From assembly GCA_964106915.2 (NCBI GenBank), contig OZ066921.1: a DNA stretch of 64,000 bases; one strand, 5' to 3'. The notes beneath the pieces are model-generated. The model was not told the origin of the DNA. It did not search any database and worked only from the letters and a program-made list of their open reading frames with translations. The stretch is from Podarcis gaigeae. Lineage: Eukaryota. Of this stretch, positions 862 through 52,675 are shown one piece after another (the stretch's first letter is position 1; the number at the start of each line of letters is the position of its first letter). Made by a program: the position numbers and the translations under genes.

Positions 862-3375
862 TGGGTTAAGCTGCCTTTAATCTTTAATTCATGCCCACAG
901 ATGCTCTGCAGCACATGCAGCAGCGGAATGGGAACGGCACTCCTAAGTTGGCGGGTTGTAGAGACTCTTGCCAGACCTTCCCTTTCAAAGCCGCACAGCC
1001 TGGGGAATGGTACAAATGGCCTTCCATTGCCCTCTTCATTGCTCTTTGTGGCAAAAAAAATGCATTGCTTTTATCCAGCCCCGCACTGCCAGCCCCAGAG
1101 GCTTTGAGAAAACAAAAAACAGCTGAGTAAAATGCCCCCTTCTCTCCCAGAAGGCGGGTGGGTGGGAAGCTTCCTCCAAGGAAAAAGGGCTGAAGGAGGG
1201 CAGGCGCTCAGGCTGTAAAAGCCAGTAAGTGTAGCAAATTTTTCTGCATGGATAGCAGAATTTGGCCGAGGCTGACAATGTGCTTGCTCTTTCCAAGCTC
1301 CCACAGGCTCTGGCTGCATTAAGCTGTGCTTGGCCAGAATGGAAGCCAAGCAAAGAGGCAACTATTGTTGTACCTGGCATCTAAGTGGATGCAAAGGGAA
1401 GACAATCCCACTGCACAATTGAAAGAAGGGCCAAGTGAATGTAGGAGGGGTGACTAGCAGCCTTCCAAACAGATTCATTAGCATCTCACAGAAGACAGCG
1501 AAGGCTACTCTGGGAAACGAACATACAACCACAGGCTAATGTTACAGCAGACTCTGAAGCACCAGGGCGGGGGACCGATCAGATCCAGATCCTTAAAAAT
1601 AAGTGAGGCAGTGCATAATCAGAGACAGGGAACCCATGATATGAGCAGAAAGGCAGAAAGTGGGGGAGGAAGTAAAGGAAAACAGACAGGGAGCCATCAA
1701 TAGATTCAGTGTCCATCCTTCCATCCATCTGCCTGTGTCCTTTCGAAAGTAAAAGAGAACAGGTCCCTGCCTCTGTGTATTAAGCTATGAGGGTGCAGGG
1801 AGGAAGCAGAAGTCTTGTGCAAAGGATGAATAAAAACTCTCTCCTCCAACACAACTTCTGGCAAAAAAGTGATGTTATTATTTATTTTGTTTACTATAGA
1901 TTCTTCTATCTTGCTCTTCCTCCAACCTGGAACTCAGGGCAGGTAAAGAACCAAGAACAAGAAGCCAAAATAAGGCATCGTTTAAGTGCAACTTGCTAAC
2001 TAGGCAAACAAAGAAGAACTTTATTGGGCAAATTGTTAAAGGTATAAAAATGAGCAAAAAATGGGAATTCAAACTAGAGTATTTTTTGCATATTTGCATT
2101 TAATGTGCAAAAATGAAGGTAGCAAACTGCTGTGGGAACTGAAGATAGCAGGTGTGGAGGAGTTGAAATTGTGGTCCTGTTGAAATTGTTCCTCAGAGGC
2201 TGTGATTTGCATTGGGAGGAAATTCCCCACTGGTGCAAATGGTAGCTTCTGGAGAGTGATTATCAACAGGACTTTGACACAGACACCTCAAATATTTGGT
2301 TTCATCTAATGCTGTTTTCAAAGCTTTTGAGATTACTTTTTATCACTTTCTAGGGTGGGTAAAGTTGAGCAAGAAATACAAACTATTTTCATATTTAGGC
2401 ACAGGTTATAACATTTTTGGAAGTCTACAGAAAGGGACATACCTAAAGGTGAGGATTGGTGTGTGTGTGTGTTTAATTTCTGTGTTTTACAGAAATTATC
2501 CCAGCTGCTTCAGGCCAAAAACATCATTCTGCATTTGGTGGCCAAACACATCATTATGGGAGGACAGAGCAGCCCATCTGGGCACTGAGTGCAGCTCCTG
2601 TTGCCTACTCAAAGCCTTAAGCTTAAAAGGGGACTAAAAGGCTCTCACAACTGAGGCAGCCATGCACCAGTCTTGACCCTGGAGTCATCCTCTTCAAGGA
2701 ATGAAGCTAAGGAGCTGGAGTTTGAGAGGGAACTGCGCTCAGGCCAGTCCCAGATGTATGTAACTAACAGGAACCACTTGTGCAAGAGGAGCCCATTGTG
2801 CCAGCACCTCTCTGTCCAAAGGACATCACATTTCCCTCCTCTGACTCAGAGGGTTCCAGTTCAGGAGCCATGGTTGGGCCACTGTCTCCTTTGCTCCATC
2901 AGAGTCAAAGCAGGTTGAAACCCTTTAAATGAAGAGGTTCCTCTCACCGCTGAGCTAGCAACCGAGATAGAGCTGTTGCTCATATTTAAGGGCCAGCTTC
3001 TGGGTTACGGGTGCTGAAACAACATTCAAGCTTTGCTCATGTGGAGTCTCCCGCCTGAGCCTCACATGGAGCTGTCCAGGGTACTGATGATGTTTGCCTC
3101 ACAGCTGAAACCATCACTTAAAACAGAACTGCAGCCACATTTTCCCTTGGTGTTTCAGCCCTAGTGGTCTTCTTCCTTTGCAGGGTTGGGGAATACTGAA
3201 GCTCAAAACACATCTAATGGTTCCTACACATTTCCCTTTATGCTTCATTTGGGTTCAGGAGAATGGAGCAATTCAGTAGCAACAAGTTGGATGCTAAGAA
3301 TGACAAATGCAAGATGCAGAGAGAGAGAGAGATGGTAGGAGGGGAATGACATGAGACTGGTGGCAGGCCAGCACA

Positions 3376-3563
3376 GGGAAGGGCCGTAGCTCAGTGGTAG
3401 AGCATCTGCTCTGCATGCCGAAGGTCCCAGGTTTAATCCCTGGCATCTCCAGCTACACCTGGGAAAGACTCCATGTCTGAAATCCCAGAGAGTCACTGCT
3501 ACTAGTCAGTGAGCTAGATGGATCAATGGTCCATCTTGGTATAAGGCAGCTTCCTATGTTCCT
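3376..3563 (+). mobile_element. tRNA(Ala-like)-derived SINE, near full length (squamate Squam2/AnolisSINE2-like)
   Basis: Head GGGCCGTAGCTCAGTGGTAGAGC with Pol III A box (3387-3397) and degenerate B box GGTTTAATCCC (3430-3440), TGC in the anticodon position, then a non-tRNA body and LINE-like tail ...GAGCTAGATGGATCAATGGTC...ATAAGGCAGCTTCCTATGTTCCT. The family name is from recall. Confidence 0.85.
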
Positions 3564-4161
3564 GTGGGACAAGTTTGTCTTTTACCATGAGTAAGGCTGA
3601 GTGGATAAGTCTGGCATTGTGCGCAGAGATGAAAAGGGGTTGACATTTGCCGTATTAATTAAATGTTTAGAATTTACAAGCAAAGGAGAGCCAAGCCTGG
3701 CGTTCTGTTTGAATAGTTACTTTATTAGTTTTGAGTTAAGCATGTGCAGGACTGAGTTCTGTATTTTAAGATAAGCTATGCAAGAGGTTGGGTGTCAGAA
3801 TTAAAAGTTTCAAATTTGCCAGCATATGTTTTATTAAAGACTGACCCACTACTGACTTCATCTTTAGGGTCCTCTAACTTGCAAAGGATTCGGACCAAAA
3901 CACCAAAGAAACTCCATGGGGACACAGAAGCTGCTGCAAGTGAAACACAAGCATCTGTACTATAGAGTACAGCATCTTTACCGTTTACATGTCACACAAG
4001 TTAAGGTGAGAGCCTTACTTATTGGTGCACAAGTGAATTTGTAAGCTCCTTAACTCTTTTTAAAAAAACTGAAATGTATATATTTCAGTCCTAGAATGTC
4101 TTCATTGTTTTTAATGAAAGCAAATTTGCTAAATTACACGAGCCATTTCAATGGGAAAAAT

Positions 4162-4236
4162 TATACTATACTATACTATACTATACTATACTATACTATA
4201 CTATACTATACTTTACTTTACTTTACTTTACTTTAC
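4162..4236. repeat. Compound pentanucleotide microsatellite (TATAC)n-(TTTAC)n
   Basis: TATAC units 4162-4211 switch by one substitution to TTTAC units 4212-4236. Confidence 0.95.
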
Positions 4237-4503
4237 TAAACACACCAGCAGCAAAACCATCTACCTTACTCTCACATAGGCACACACAGCAGCACTTCTT
4301 TCTCTTTAACATACCACAGGCACACAGAGCACCCTTCCTCACAAACACATCCATGTTCTCCCTCTTGCTCTCTGTCACAAGTATGTCCTCCTAGTGTGCT
4401 CATCCTCTGCTTCCACTGGTGCTCACTAGTTGAAGGATAACAATATGCAGAGATCCATCTTCTTCCAGTCCCCTGGACTAGATCACAAATTCTCTCTCTC
4501 ACT

Positions 4504-4505
<2 letters not shown>

Positions 4506-4551
<46 letters not shown>
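4506..4551. repeat. (GA)n microsatellite
   Basis: Direct reading; preceded by a short (CT)n at 4491-4500. Confidence 0.95.
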
Positions 4552-4553
<2 letters not shown>

Positions 4554-7500
4554 TGGAAAAAGCCATAGTCTTGCTCTGCCACAACTTACTTGCTGGGTGT
4601 GTCAGCTTTTAACTACCTTGTAAATGCCGCCCTATCCTGCCAATCCACCTGCATTCAGGGTTTTTTTCATTTCCAACTAATCTCTTGCTTTGCGTCTTTT
4701 CCTACCTGCTATTATTCCAAATCACCCACTGTACAACTGGAAAAACAAACCTGCTTGCGTGTCTTACATGCATAACTGTTAATTTACCTAATTAAATGTA
4801 ATCTTGTTAAACTGTGTGTATCTTTGGAGCAGGAAATCAACTGACAACCAGGGTCAAAATTGAAAGCAACAGTGTGAGTCAAGTCCCTGAATCTCCCATG
4901 ATGGGAAATTAAGTGCAGCTTTCAAACAGCCTCCTGATTAGCTATTTATCTTAAGCCATTTTAGGCAGAAACTGATACTGTAACAAGAGGTAAATTATTT
5001 TACAAGAAGTTTTCCCCCTTTCTTTCTAAAGAAGTGCAGTGCCTCATTCAAACCGTTTGTTTCTCTGCTTGTTTAGGATAAGTGAAAGATGCTGACAAGC
5101 CCAGTTAAGCTACAGCCACGTTCTTTAGACTGAGCAAGTCACAGACCGGGGTTCTTTGCTTCTGCGTTGTCTTGGTCAGACAGAAAGCTTCTTACCAGCA
5201 TCATCTAAATACCCCTGTTGTTGTGATATACATTGAAAAGTCAGCATGAAACATTCCATGCCAATAAAAATCAACAGAGAGAAAAAGAGAAGAAGTCCTT
5301 GGCCTGAGAGCTTAAATAAATTACCATCTTTGTAATTCTGTAATAAATCCCTCAGTTGGGCTATAATGATTTAGTGTTTGCTGATTTGGCACAAAGATAA
5401 ATGTCTGGTGTTGCTTAATGGATAAAGTGTTGCCTTTTCACCCTCCTGACCCTGTTTCAGCCTCTGCTCCAAGGACTCCCCTCAGTTCTTGATGGACAGC
5501 AGCAGCAGCAGCAGCAGAGGAGCTGGAGAAATGGCCTCTGAGAGGCACCCGCTCCAGAGTCAGGAAAGGGGCAGAGGGTGGGTGAGTGTGTGGACATTAA
5601 TGGAATGGAGGCCCATCTTTCACACCTTATAGAAGGAAGCCCAGACTTCTTGCCAGCATTGTGCCTGTCAGGGCTTTGAGCTTCAAAGGCAGAAAGTTAA
5701 GCACTCCACAGGCAGCCGCTGCAAAGCAGCTTCTTCCCTCCCAAAAGGACACCCACAGAGTTAGGGAAAGATATCAAGTTCCTCCTAGGTGCCAGCTTCA
5801 GGTTTTTAATGGAGACGGGCACCAGCGCCAGAATGGGGCTGAAATAAATCTTTCCACTTCCCTAACATTCTGCTCTGATTTCTAGGCACCAGGTTATCTG
5901 TTGCCTGAATTTTCCCCAAACTGGGAGGCACCTGTTCAGAAAAGGCAGCCCAATTCTTTCCCGGGGGGGGGGGGGTCCCCACATGTCACTTGGGATACAA
6001 ACTGTCTATTTTTTAGCATCAGGAGGAGATTGCACAAGGAAGGAAAACCCAGACGGGTTCCGGGAATAAAAGTTTCTCATGTTTTATTCAATTTGGCAGG
6101 AATGGGAGGAATATTTTTCAGGGGACACACATTCTCTTTTGCGCAATCTGCTGAGGGCGCATTTTGGCTGCTGTGAGATGTGCTGCTTATATCTCTTTAC
6201 TGTTTTTCATCTACGTTGCTCTAATCTCCTTAAAGAGGAAAGAGTGGGGTATAAATTATTTTAAAACAAATACAAAAATAAAACAATGCAACCAGATGTT
6301 GACTCTGTGGGAGATGGTTGTCAGTGATTAATGAATCACTAGGGATGCTGCTAATCATTGCATGCTCATTTCTCATTAGAAACTCTTCCTATAAGGTGTG
6401 AAGATTCTCTAATCCTTGAATTCTTTGGACAAAGGGACACATTCTCCTTTGATGAGAGGAAATGAATGTGGTTGTTTCCCATGATACAGGTTAAGAGAAT
6501 GCTCAGTTTGCAATCAGATGAAATCTCTTAGTTAAAGCTGGTCATCTGGATTACAGAAATGCCTTTTGGGGATTGCTTTCTAGGTGCAAAGAGCAACACA
6601 TCTTTAAGTCAAAGCCCTTTGTGCAGGCTGCTCTATGGTGCACCTCCAGATAAGGAGACAGCATCCCCGCCAGGCCTCCCTAGACTGCCCCACAGGGGGC
6701 TCCTCTGGCCCATTTGCTCCAGTGGCCTTCCCTTTCCAGCCGTTAGTTAGCATTAACGGGAGAGGACAGCAAACCCCCAAAGGCTGTGTCAAAAAACGGG
6801 GAAGAGAGTCATTCAATAGAGCACAGAAAAGACCTAAATTGGAGGTCAGGAAAGCCGGTCAAAAGCCGGGTAGGAAGGAGGGTAGGTTTGCTTTGTCCTG
6901 CCGCCACTGGGAGCAATGCAGCCAGAGATCTCTCCAGCCCTGGGGGAATGGGGGCTATTGTCTTCAGCTGCCCATAGATGTAAGCTCCATATGCCCAGAG
7001 CCCTCCCCCTTTCCTGACCCCAACAAGGTCAGAGGCACAGACATTGGTCTTGAACTCTCCGTCTGTTTCCCCACTTTCTTTCTGCCATATTAATTACGGC
7101 TTCTCTCTATCAAATGCATCCTCCCCCCTGGCATTCACGTGCATTAAGAAGGGCAAGCTGCTTGTTCTGGCTGCCTTATCCCTCTTCCCCCACAGAAAGG
7201 CAGGCTGAGTGGAGGACAGCCTAGAGATGCTTTTCTCCATGGGCTAAAAACAACACTTGCTCTGATCTCCAAAGTGCCGCAGGGATCAGCAGGCAAGGGA
7301 GGTGGAGAAGGCAGGGTGATGCCACACTGAGGGGCGTAGATGCACAGATTATTGTGGAAAACCCAGCAGAGATTCTCACTGGCTGGAAGATCTCTTGTTG
7401 CCAGTGTTTCCTGGAGCTGCTCCTTCTCCAAACACTGCAGAGCATTTCACGTTGGATCATTGCAAGTTTTGATGAGGGTTGAGGAAGGCCCCCCCTTGAT

Positions 7501-12195: not shown

Positions 12196-12676
12196 CAGGG
12201 GTGGAGGAAGGGGGGGCAGTCCGCCCTGGGTCCCTCATCACTGAGGGGGTGACATTTGGCGCTCCGCCCGCTCGTGACTCCCAAGCCTACCCCGAGCCAT
12301 CGGGGGAAGGGGCAGAGCTGCATTGCCTTGCCAGTGGCCTTCCCCCCTTCCCCCTTTGTTTTGACAGCTCGAGGGAGGCTTGGGAGTCGCACCGTTGACC
12401 CCTGCTCCCGGGATGCTTCCTGGGGGAGGGAAGCCTCCCCTGAGCTGTCAAAAGGAAGAGGGAAGGGAGGAAGGCTGCTGGCAAAGCGGTGCAGCTCTCC
12501 CCCCCCACCACCCAGGAAGCAGCCCGCCATGGGGGCGGCTCGCTCCACCCCCCATGGGCAGCTCGTTCCACCCCCATGGGCGTTTTGCTCCCAGGATACT
12601 CGTTCTGTCCCCGGGATGCTTGCCCCACCCCCATGGCCCCGCCCCTGGGTGCACAGAGAAGCTAGCTCCGCCTCTG
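12196..12676. mobile_element. GC-rich non-autonomous hAT-like element with internal hairpin
   Basis: TIRs CAGGGGTGGAG / CTCCGCCTCTG (9/11); 8-bp TSD CCCACCGC (12188-95) / CCGACCGC (12677-84); long imperfect internal inverted repeat about 12315-12382 versus 12431-12498. Confidence 0.8.
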
Positions 12677-50480: not shown

Positions 50481-51656
50481 TAGAACGATTCCCCCTCCCT
50501 TTTTTTTCTTTTTTGCAGCAAACATCTGATGAAAGTCAGTAAGGTACTTGAATGCTTCTAAAGGTTTTGTGGCTATTTCTTTACTTTGCCTGGTTAACAA
50601 AAAGGCAGAACAGGACTGGCCAATCTCCCCCTTTTACTTCTTCAAGTTAACAAAAAAGTGCTTAATAATATTGCTTTCAATTCTTCTCTGATAAATAGCA
50701 CTTAAATGCACCAAAAACAGCTCTATTTCTCTATCGCTCCCTTCCTTTCCTGCTTCTGTCTTGGAGTATAATATGAAAAGCCTTTGGGTGCCAGTGCCAT
50801 CCTCCCTCTGCAAAAGACAGCACCAATTTTTAAAGGCTTTTTTTTTTAAAAAAAGGCTATGGCTGTAATATCTGCTCTAGAAAAGAGAAATTGCCTTCCC
50901 CCTGGGAGCAGGCACATCATAACATGGAATCATAAAAAGCTGAGAAAAGCCACCCATTTCTCAGATGAGAAGATAAGAAATTTGTTTGGAATGCTTACAT
51001 GTAGATCCATTTAATAGCCACTCCTCATTTGGTACCATTCTCAGGCCAAGGCATGAAAGGGAAAAGACTTGGATGTTTTCATGGCAGAAGAGTCATTTCC
51101 TGACCATGCCTGAAGTTGAGACTCAAAATACAAGTTATCTTCAGTTACTTCCAAGGGCCTATTGTGGAGCTCTCCACCGGTGAGACTTTTGCCTGCCTGC
51201 CATCCATTTTTCTGCCTTCCCCAGATATGTCCGAAAGCGGGGAGAATATGTGATTATTGTTCTCCAGAGAGGTGGAGGAAAGGTGTTTCAAAAAGTGACT
51301 TTATCCATATGTAAGCAGATGGTTTGTCTGGAGAGAATGAGAATGCAAACCTTACTCACTGGCGCATGCACACACAAACACACACATGCCCTTGGAGAGG
51401 CTGCTTGTTTTAAGTGGGCCCTTTTGCTTTCTGAATTGGTGGTGGAGATGTGTGTTACGTGTTGAAGAAAGCATGATGTACTCACACACCTCCTATTATG
51501 AATTACTGCACTTGATAATTATAGTAGGAAAGTGATCATCTGAGCAAGAGTTAATTTCAAAAGCCTCCTGTCAAATGTAGTTGGCTGAAGAGAACATATT
51601 TCTCATTTCATGGGAAACCGACGATATAGCTCTTGTTGTTTCAGAATTTCATAGTT

Positions 51657-51873
51657 CCAGTTCCAGATAGGTAGCCGTGTTGGTCTGCCATAGTCAAAAC
51701 AAAAAAAATTCCTTCCAGTAGCACCTTAAAGACCAACTAAGTCAGTTCTTGGTATGAGCTTTCGTGTGCATGCACACTTCTTCAAAAGAAGAAGTGTGCA
51801 TGCACACGAAAGCTCATACCAAGAACTGACTTAGTTGGTCTTTAAGGTGCTACTGGAAGGAATTTTTTTTGTT
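51657..51873. mobile_element. Penelope-like retroelement terminal (pLTR) fragment in inverted-repeat arrangement
   Basis: Perfect 86-bp inverted repeat (51698-51783 / 51788-51873, loop AAAA); 17-bp direct repeat TTCAGAATTTCATAGTT at 51640-56 and 51872-88; GGTAGCCGTGTTGGTCTG...GTAGCACCTTAAAGACCAAC...GAGCTTTCGTG matches my recall of reptile PLE termini. Confidence 0.8.
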
Positions 51874-52510
51874 CAGAATTTCATAGTTAATATCTTCAAC
51901 TTCTCTCGGAAGAGTCTCGCGTTATTTCAATTGCAAATTGAGTGTGCGGGGGGGGGGAGGGAGTGGGAAATAGGTTGTGGTGAAAATGTGTAAAAAGGAA
52001 TAAAAGTTGTGCTGAACTTGAAGGAAAGAAACCCTAAAACTACCCATCTGTTTTCACAGTGATGTGATTATGGTAGAGCCAAGTCACATCCACCTGGCTG
52101 CCCCATGCAATGGTTAGGATTTGGTTGTGGACAGTGCTTTTTTCTGGGGGGGGGGGGACACAGGGGTACACATACCCCTAAACATTTTATGAATCTTTGT
52201 ACTTTTGTCCATTTACTGTATTTATTTTTCCTGATTTGAACTATAAAATGGTGATTTTCTTGAGTCAAAATGAGACTATCCCTAAACATTTTTTTCAGGA
52301 AAAAAGCACTGGTTGTAGATATTCCCACACTAAAAAGAAAACATGAATCTGCACTGAATCTGAATTTTTGTTTGTTTTTTAATCTGAATCTAATTTTTTG
52401 GCTCAGTCCCAAACATTTGGGTTTTGTATCATGGACGCTTTGAATTTTTTGATCCACAAATAGGTTTTTGTATTGAAAAGGGTGTTTGGTGCTTTCTCCC
52501 TAACTATTAT

Positions 52511-52622
52511 GAGGCGGCCCTGTTTAGGAAAGTTTTTAATGTCTGATGCTGTATTGTTTTTAATATTTGGTTGGAAGCCGCCCAGAGTGGCTGGGGAAAC
52601 ACAGCCAGATGGGCGGGGTATA

Positions 52623-52675
<53 letters not shown>
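52511..52675 (+). mobile_element. L2-clade LINE 3' end with (TTA)n tail
   Basis: GCGGCCCTGTTTAGGAAAGTTTTTAA...GGAAGCCGCCCAGAGTGGCTGGGGAAACACAGCCAGATGGGCGGGGTATAA(TTA)n; homologous to 28500-28678. Confidence 0.8.

Follow-up and report, generated by a model that had tools for sequence, protein, structure and literature searches.

The window, the whole 64-kb stretch of DNA that was analysed, holds at 51657-51873 a gene-less insert of 217 bp. By sequence comparison, it consists of two head-to-head pieces of the terminal repeat (pLTR) of a Penelope-like element (PLE) whose parent has a Neptune-type linker. The insert cannot encode protein and is the only copy of the element in the window, and the three N stretches of the window all lie outside it. 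As for a host gene, none of 114 stop-to-stop frames of 100 or more amino acids in the window had a Pfam match (114 of 121 frames were searched, seven that overlap N being left out), and 24 of 27 candidate exons, when checked, gave one match, below the cut-off. The features of the locus are as follows.

51640-51656, no strand: left TSD copy, 17 bp; its last 7 nt fit the continuation of the element (microhomology at the tailed end)
51657-51697, minus strand: "tail", a 41-nt one-sided extension, about -6 to +35 of the element by alignment to copy L051
51691-51689, minus strand: first ATG of the parent ORF, within the tail, by alignment to parent copy L051
51698-51784, minus strand: tailed arm, a pLTR piece that reads in sense on the minus strand, with -92 of the element as its 5' end
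51785-51787, no strand: 3 nt of untemplated bases at the head-to-head junction
51788-51873, plus strand: tail-less arm, a pLTR piece that reads in sense on the plus strand; covers -91 to -7 and closes with a U-rich run
51872-51888, no strand: right TSD copy, 17 bp, with a 2-nt overlap with the tail-less arm

Sequence comparison bore out the geometry given in the first-pass annotation. The segments 51698-51783 and 51788-51873 are exact 86-nt reverse complements around a 4-nt loop, AAAA, the 17-mers on the two sides are identical, and beyond the hairpin the left arm has 41 nt more, on that side only. The 17-mers have no third occurrence in the window, and the right one shares 51872-51873 with the right arm. 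One A of the loop is templated and three are not. With +1 set at the first ATG of the L051 ORF, the tailed arm covers -92 to +35, or reaches +42 if the 7 nt common to element and TSD are counted; these 7 nt close the left 17-mer and fit the continuation of the element as well. The end of the tail had been read as a short repeat, (TTCCAG)2. That reading is ruled out: the letters belong to the element itself and include a family variant of one base that also occurs in L009, L010, L011 and L027. The word tail follows the usage for PLE ends in PMC8557442 and PMC11167929. An optional tail of 30-40 bp at one end and an inverted, 5'-truncated copy are described for PLEs in PMC3846280 and PMC8557442, and the insert carries both marks, in the form of its 41-nt one-sided tail and an inverted 5'-truncated pLTR copy.

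The left 131 nt of the insert recur at 94-100% identity in all 40 scored candidates from the animal's own genome (1.51 Gb, 211 contigs). Copies that reach past the tail enter an ATG and then an ORF. An ORF of 910 amino acids is present in two of the 12 longer loci fetched around ORF-start matches, L051 and L041. In profile searches the L051 protein matched both RVT_1 (E 9.5e-12) and GIY-YIG (E 7.8e-6); the L041 protein matched RVT_1, and its 910-aa ORF had no match to the GIY-YIG profile. The layout of L051 is pLTR-ORF-pLTR, and the arms of the insert are 98-99% identical to its pLTR. Upstream of GIY-YIG the parent protein (P0001) has a CX4CxxC linker; in the classification given in PMC8557442, a CX2-5CxxC linker at this place is a mark of Neptune/Nematis and is missing in Penelope/Poseidon. 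The PLE clades on record in vertebrates, as far as the sources cited here go, are Neptune and Poseidon. The first-pass proposal of a PLE origin with an inverted, truncated pLTR thus gains support from the RT and GIY-YIG domains of the parent ORF, the linker and the pLTR identity. In the CCHH motif of the L051 endonuclease the second Cys is changed. With this change in L051 and the missing profile match in L041, the two parent copies may no longer be active. The L041 copy (1683-4778 of that locus, G000:C32), whose ORF is uninterrupted, was inserted into a different ORF, a LINE-like one, and has a TSD of about 12 bp. By the look of its repeats, the host would be a squamate, probably a lacertid lizard. 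A shorter copy led by a hairpin, L033 (G000:C28), has an ORF reduced by internal deletions with both ends kept, and is a candidate non-autonomous derivative.

The pLTR of L051 also contains a candidate hammerhead motif. Inspection and a predicted fold show the core motifs together with stems I and II, which would fit the minimal type described in PMC4209133; Rfam returned no hammerhead match on the parent pLTR. In element coordinates the core begins at -93. Both arms in the window are without its first C and without the 5' strand of stem I, and C3 of the hammerhead is reported as essential in the anole element (PMC11167929). Both hammerhead copies of the insert are broken.

The family is abundant. 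A 22-mer from the core had 13,592 exact matches in the genome (control, 0) and a 26-mer from the tail had 8,075, which answers the question of copy number raised in the first-pass annotation. The same annotation had asked how often the combination of hairpin and TSD recurs. At 542 genome sites two arms meet within 12 nt at the same element spot, and among the first 100 core matches on contig C1 there were 18 head-to-head pairs, all of which were fetched. Scaled up, this corresponds to roughly 2,400 pairs genome-wide, a figure that rests on 5.1 Mb at the start of one contig and on pairs with the exact 22-mer in both arms. Fourteen of the 18 have a TSD of 11-16 nt, one lies in a microsatellite, and three have none as scored by a script whose pair finder missed five of ten junction-selected loci; loci L101 and L102 were left out of the analysis. 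The aligned arms are free of mismatches and gaps in seven of the 18, in two of these over 80 bp or more. Since TSDs and mismatch-free arms are this frequent, a perfect hairpin with a TSD is routine in this genome, and the window copy is a lineage-restricted but ordinary stub of a Neptune-type PLE. The proposal that it came from an active, young family is sustained by the 94-100% identity of the scored candidates, the number of core matches and the 910-aa parent ORFs.

Another reading of the hairpin is a non-autonomous unit that spreads by itself, copied from a master hairpin in the manner of a MITE or a retrozyme. Some junctions do recur among the 50 hairpins listed of the 542, and sizes cluster near 200-230 bp. 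However, the 26-mer across the window copy's junction occurs once in the genome, junctions and outer ends differ among copies, the tail may sit on either arm where a junction recurs, and the hammerhead cores in the window are broken. Propagation as a unit is thereby largely refuted for the window copy, and we regard it as highly improbable. Non-LTR retrozymes, in the description of bioRxiv 10.64898/2026.07.22.740005, are likewise non-autonomous, pLTR-derived and hammerhead-related. They are head-to-tail tandems with working ribozyme motifs, whereas the window holds a single head-to-head insertion with broken cores and a unique junction.

Among the hairpins of contig C1, several junction sequences recur at independent loci, and some of these are loop-less palindromes. 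Such recurrence is consistent with two cDNA ends that were joined by way of a few self-complementary bases. In L012, L016, L017, L021 and L002 the junction holds head-to-tail pLTR pieces or short iterated segments, which suggests repeated template jumps at the 5' end.

Presence and absence of the insert were compared in contigs from four of 20 sequencing runs with matching sequence. Organism A is represented by X1 and X2, which come from two studies, organism B by X4 and organism C by X5. In X4 and X5, one contig each joins 51639 directly to 51872, leaving a single 17-mer, and about 840 bp of their flanks show about 5 substitutions relative to the window. In both X1 and X2 an unbranched contig enters the element at the left junction. 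The X1 contigs, from what may be the source sample, also contain the right junction, with both element ends pointing outward; the right junction has no contig cover in X2, which proves nothing. The insert is a true insertion with a TSD, as had been read from the 17-mers, and the contigs show it to be missing in two related organisms.

These contigs bear as well on the reading of the hairpin as an assembly error or a long-read fold-back, which might be entertained since none of the contigs listed crosses its centre. The flanks are different sequences, and organisms B and C have them cleanly joined. Contigs of X1 contain the two outward-facing junctions and those of X2 the left one, and the one-sided tail and the TSD agree with the rule of the family. 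An artefact is rejected on these grounds as extremely improbable.

With the empty site in B and C and the insert in the samples of A, the insertion is younger than the split between the alleles of A and those of B and C, and it may be common or fixed in A. The first-pass description, very young and possibly polymorphic, holds in part: the insert is missing in B and C, while no empty allele of organism A was found among the contigs listed from X1 and X2, a kind of data in which rare variants are dropped. The absence of mismatches between the arms is a weak clock, because two of the 18 position-ordered hairpins are likewise mismatch-free over 80 bp or more of aligned arms.

The outer ends of the hairpins follow a simple rule. 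Exactly one arm is tailed in 17 of the 18 position-ordered pairs, and the other arm ends in a U-rich run. Relative to the first ATG, the tail end falls at about +28 to +42 and the U-run end at about -10 to -2. The first 30 loci were excluded from this count because the query for them contained the tail and the window copy's junction; five further pairs among them keep the rule. Exceptions are known on both sides. L075 and the degraded L085 have no tail, and L002, L029 and L050, which come from biased locus sets, have two. L045, L046 and L049 were also scored with two tails, but these loci had been selected by the start of the ORF, into which one of their arms continues.

A diagnostic base, G or A, is the same in both arms of 36 of 37 callable pairs (45 listed), where about 54% would be expected from independent draws. 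The two arms of a hairpin therefore come from one template or source. The sole discordant pair, L013 (G000:C1:8929575), possibly drew on two RNA templates.

The arms differ in how far they reach toward the 5' side of the element. The tail-less arm is longer by 7 nt or more (7-114 nt) in nine of 17 pairs, the tailed arm in four, and the two agree within 3 nt in the remaining four. In 11 of the 17 the longer arm has its 5' end at -105 to -93. In the element pLTR a TATA-like box lies at -130, followed at -102 by an Inr-like motif; by the spacing of these motifs only, transcription is predicted to start at the A at -100. The cluster of 5' ends coincides with the 5' edge of the hammerhead too, and stalling of the RT there is an alternative to a transcription start. 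The tail end has 2-4 nt of microhomology with the target in nine of 14 pairs, a figure with no shuffled control behind it.

Both of the outer sites serve as ends, as is seen in the longer copies. In the full-length L051 the tail-less site is the sole end, and no inverted arm is listed on the 5' side of this copy. In L041 the body of the ORF adjoins the tail-less end, and a short inverted stub carries the tail. L105 and L109 have similar junctions with the tail on opposite arms.

We consider it likely, with some reserve, that the insert arose by twin priming on one RNA. This mechanism is read from end products alone, every step of it by inference. The GIY-YIG endonuclease would cut the two target strands 8-17 nt apart. 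One target 3'-OH would prime at the tail site, with up to 7 nt of pairing in the present case, and the second would prime at the U-run about 40 nt upstream of it. Both cDNAs would then run to the 5' end of the RNA, predicted at the Inr-like A (-100), 30 nt below the TATA-like box at -130. The RNA not being degraded, the second cDNA would displace the first. The two cDNA ends would lose a few bases and be joined, in the window copy with three added A's. The overlap of the two cDNAs would cover nearly the whole insert, which would account for the hairpin shape.

The closest competitor is a fold-back, in which a single tail-primed cDNA reaches the 5' end of the RNA, primes itself, copies its own strand as far as the U-run and then switches to the second target end, with later central deletions reshaping the junction. 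In one step this would give identical arms with common alleles (36/37), the one-tail rule (17/18) and the stop at the T-run, and in eight of the 17 pairs, the window copy included (-92 against -91), the tailed arm is longer than or equal to the other. What it does not readily yield is the tail-less arm that extends 7-114 nt farther in the other nine, or L041 with its whole ORF on the tail-less side; both would need a later deletion. Also against it are L051, with its tail-less end and no inverted arm listed on the 5' side, and similar junctions with the tail on either arm (L105 and L109). A cDNA primed at the U-run and folded back cannot make a tail. Twin priming is favoured over fold-back by the one-tail rule, the common alleles, the longer tail-less arms and the cluster of 5' ends taken together; the fold-back reading is unlikely, even with its deletions.

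Head-to-head PLE repeats have also been ascribed to an antisense pLTR transcript that primes itself (PMC3846280). The hairpin would exist before integration, and resolution by the endonuclease at two sites would leave the one-sided tail (PMC8557442). Arms from the same template and a one-sided tail both follow from this published proposal, and several junctions are loop-less palindromes. It makes no prediction, however, that 5' ends should cluster at a TATA/Inr-like start in the sense direction, and in the in vitro work reported in PMC11167929 the tail maps to two RT start sites on sense RNA. Its probability seems to us low.

Twin priming, for its part, has to accommodate the pairs with two tails (L002, L029, L050) or none (L075, L085) and the discordant L013. 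Common alleles could also be due to gene conversion, to a single source gene that dominates at any one time or to fold-back, and central deletions after insertion could lengthen either arm relative to the other.

The proposal agrees with in vitro work on an anole PLE, by analogy and as far as that account goes (PMC11167929). Poseidon_Ac (PAc) of Anolis carolinensis is, like the present family, a squamate-type vertebrate PLE with RT and GIY-YIG, a hammerhead in the pLTR (a candidate one in the present family), and two internal end sites near the pLTR-ORF junction whose spacing is the tail. Its protein, predicted to be dimeric, nicks and extends both target strands, and reverse transcription starts at two adjacent internal sites. 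PAc belongs to the Penelope/Poseidon clade whereas the window family has the CX2-5CxxC linker of Neptune/Nematis, and the two were compared by description. The PAc start sites are 111-118 nt into the ORF, against ends at about -10 to -2 and +28 to +42 here. As described there, PAc initiates in vitro without target homology, whereas nine of 14 tail ends here have 2-4 nt in common with the target, and inverted products do not figure in the part of the study cited.

A precedent for two target ends priming on one RNA is the twin priming of L1, in the account of bioRxiv 10.1101/2024.08.27.596794. There the joined cDNA ends appear as an inversion inside one TSD, and overrun of the internal primer leads to a duplication. 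The second priming site of L1 is variable and the overlap small, whereas here it would keep a constant distance of about 40 nt from the first, with an overlap of nearly the whole insert. The insert also differs from L1 products in that poly(A) is missing.

The layout itself, with an inverted pLTR, a one-sided tail and a TSD, is already published for PLEs (PMC3846280, PMC8557442). In the Pen2a EN+ PLEs of Adineta vaga (PMC3846280; Fig. 2 of PMC8557442), as here, the pLTRs are head-to-head. These Adineta-type PLEs also share, as described, a tail on one arm over the first ORF codons, a short TSD, TATA/Inr-like motifs in the pLTR and a hammerhead motif there, which is a candidate one in the window family. 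In contrast to Adineta, no ORF lies between the repeats here, which leaves a 217-bp hairpin, and copies number in the thousands. The TSD is 17 bp in the window and 11-16 in sister copies, against 8-10 bp in Adineta.

More tentatively, with the chances somewhat short of even, the thousands of mini-hairpins of the family could be an in vivo record of programmed twin priming as the normal way in which PLEs insert. A single protein dimer would act on one RNA from two fixed starts about 40 nt apart, one for each target strand, and both cDNAs would reach the capped 5' end. If true, programmed twin priming would explain head-to-head pLTRs and a one-sided tail without antisense templates. The origin of inverted PLE structures is stated as unresolved in PMC8557442. 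Family-wide end statistics discriminate between models of PLE insertion, for which this genome supplies thousands of events for a statistical test, and the geometry matters somewhat more than the single locus.

The locus itself is most likely a neutral, dead-end insertion. If transcribed, the hairpin would be predicted to fold very stably: for the hairpin strand a free energy of -170.3 kcal/mol was calculated (z -26.6), and none of 200 shuffles was equally stable. Recruitment as a functional dsRNA, miRNA precursor or cruciform is nonetheless barely credible. Close relatives are without the insertion, the hairpin is one among hundreds to thousands alike, and the 33 Rfam matches on the insert are all below the gathering score, those to miRNAs far below it and owing to hairpin shape only. 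Roles as dsRNA, in editing, as small RNA or as a cruciform would in any case not be specific to this copy. No RNA run with matching sequence was listed among 23 runs, which has no bearing on expression. As a single locus this neutral-looking, lineage-restricted stub may serve at most as a presence/absence marker; thousands of near-perfect hairpins of 80-100 bp, if transcribed, could be a sizeable source of dsRNA in the animal.

Other repeats occur in the window. About 270 bp to the right of the hairpin, 52152-52295 is a piece of a second very-high-copy repeat, about 90% like its relatives. Organisms A, B and C all have it, and its contig depth sums to nearly 10^6. A (TTA)17 tail closes 52546-52675, the 3' end of a further repeat that looks like a retroelement, and similar sequence flanks L002 and L012. 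At 12309-12503 there is a degenerate self-inverted repeat of 195 bp with 72% identity; it may be what is left of an old hairpin of MITE or PLE type. About 1.1 kb to the left of the insertion, 50500-50548 comprises a pyrimidine tract with AG, then 20 nt, then GTAAG, which looks like a splice donor; the whole resembles a micro-exon and could also be due to chance.
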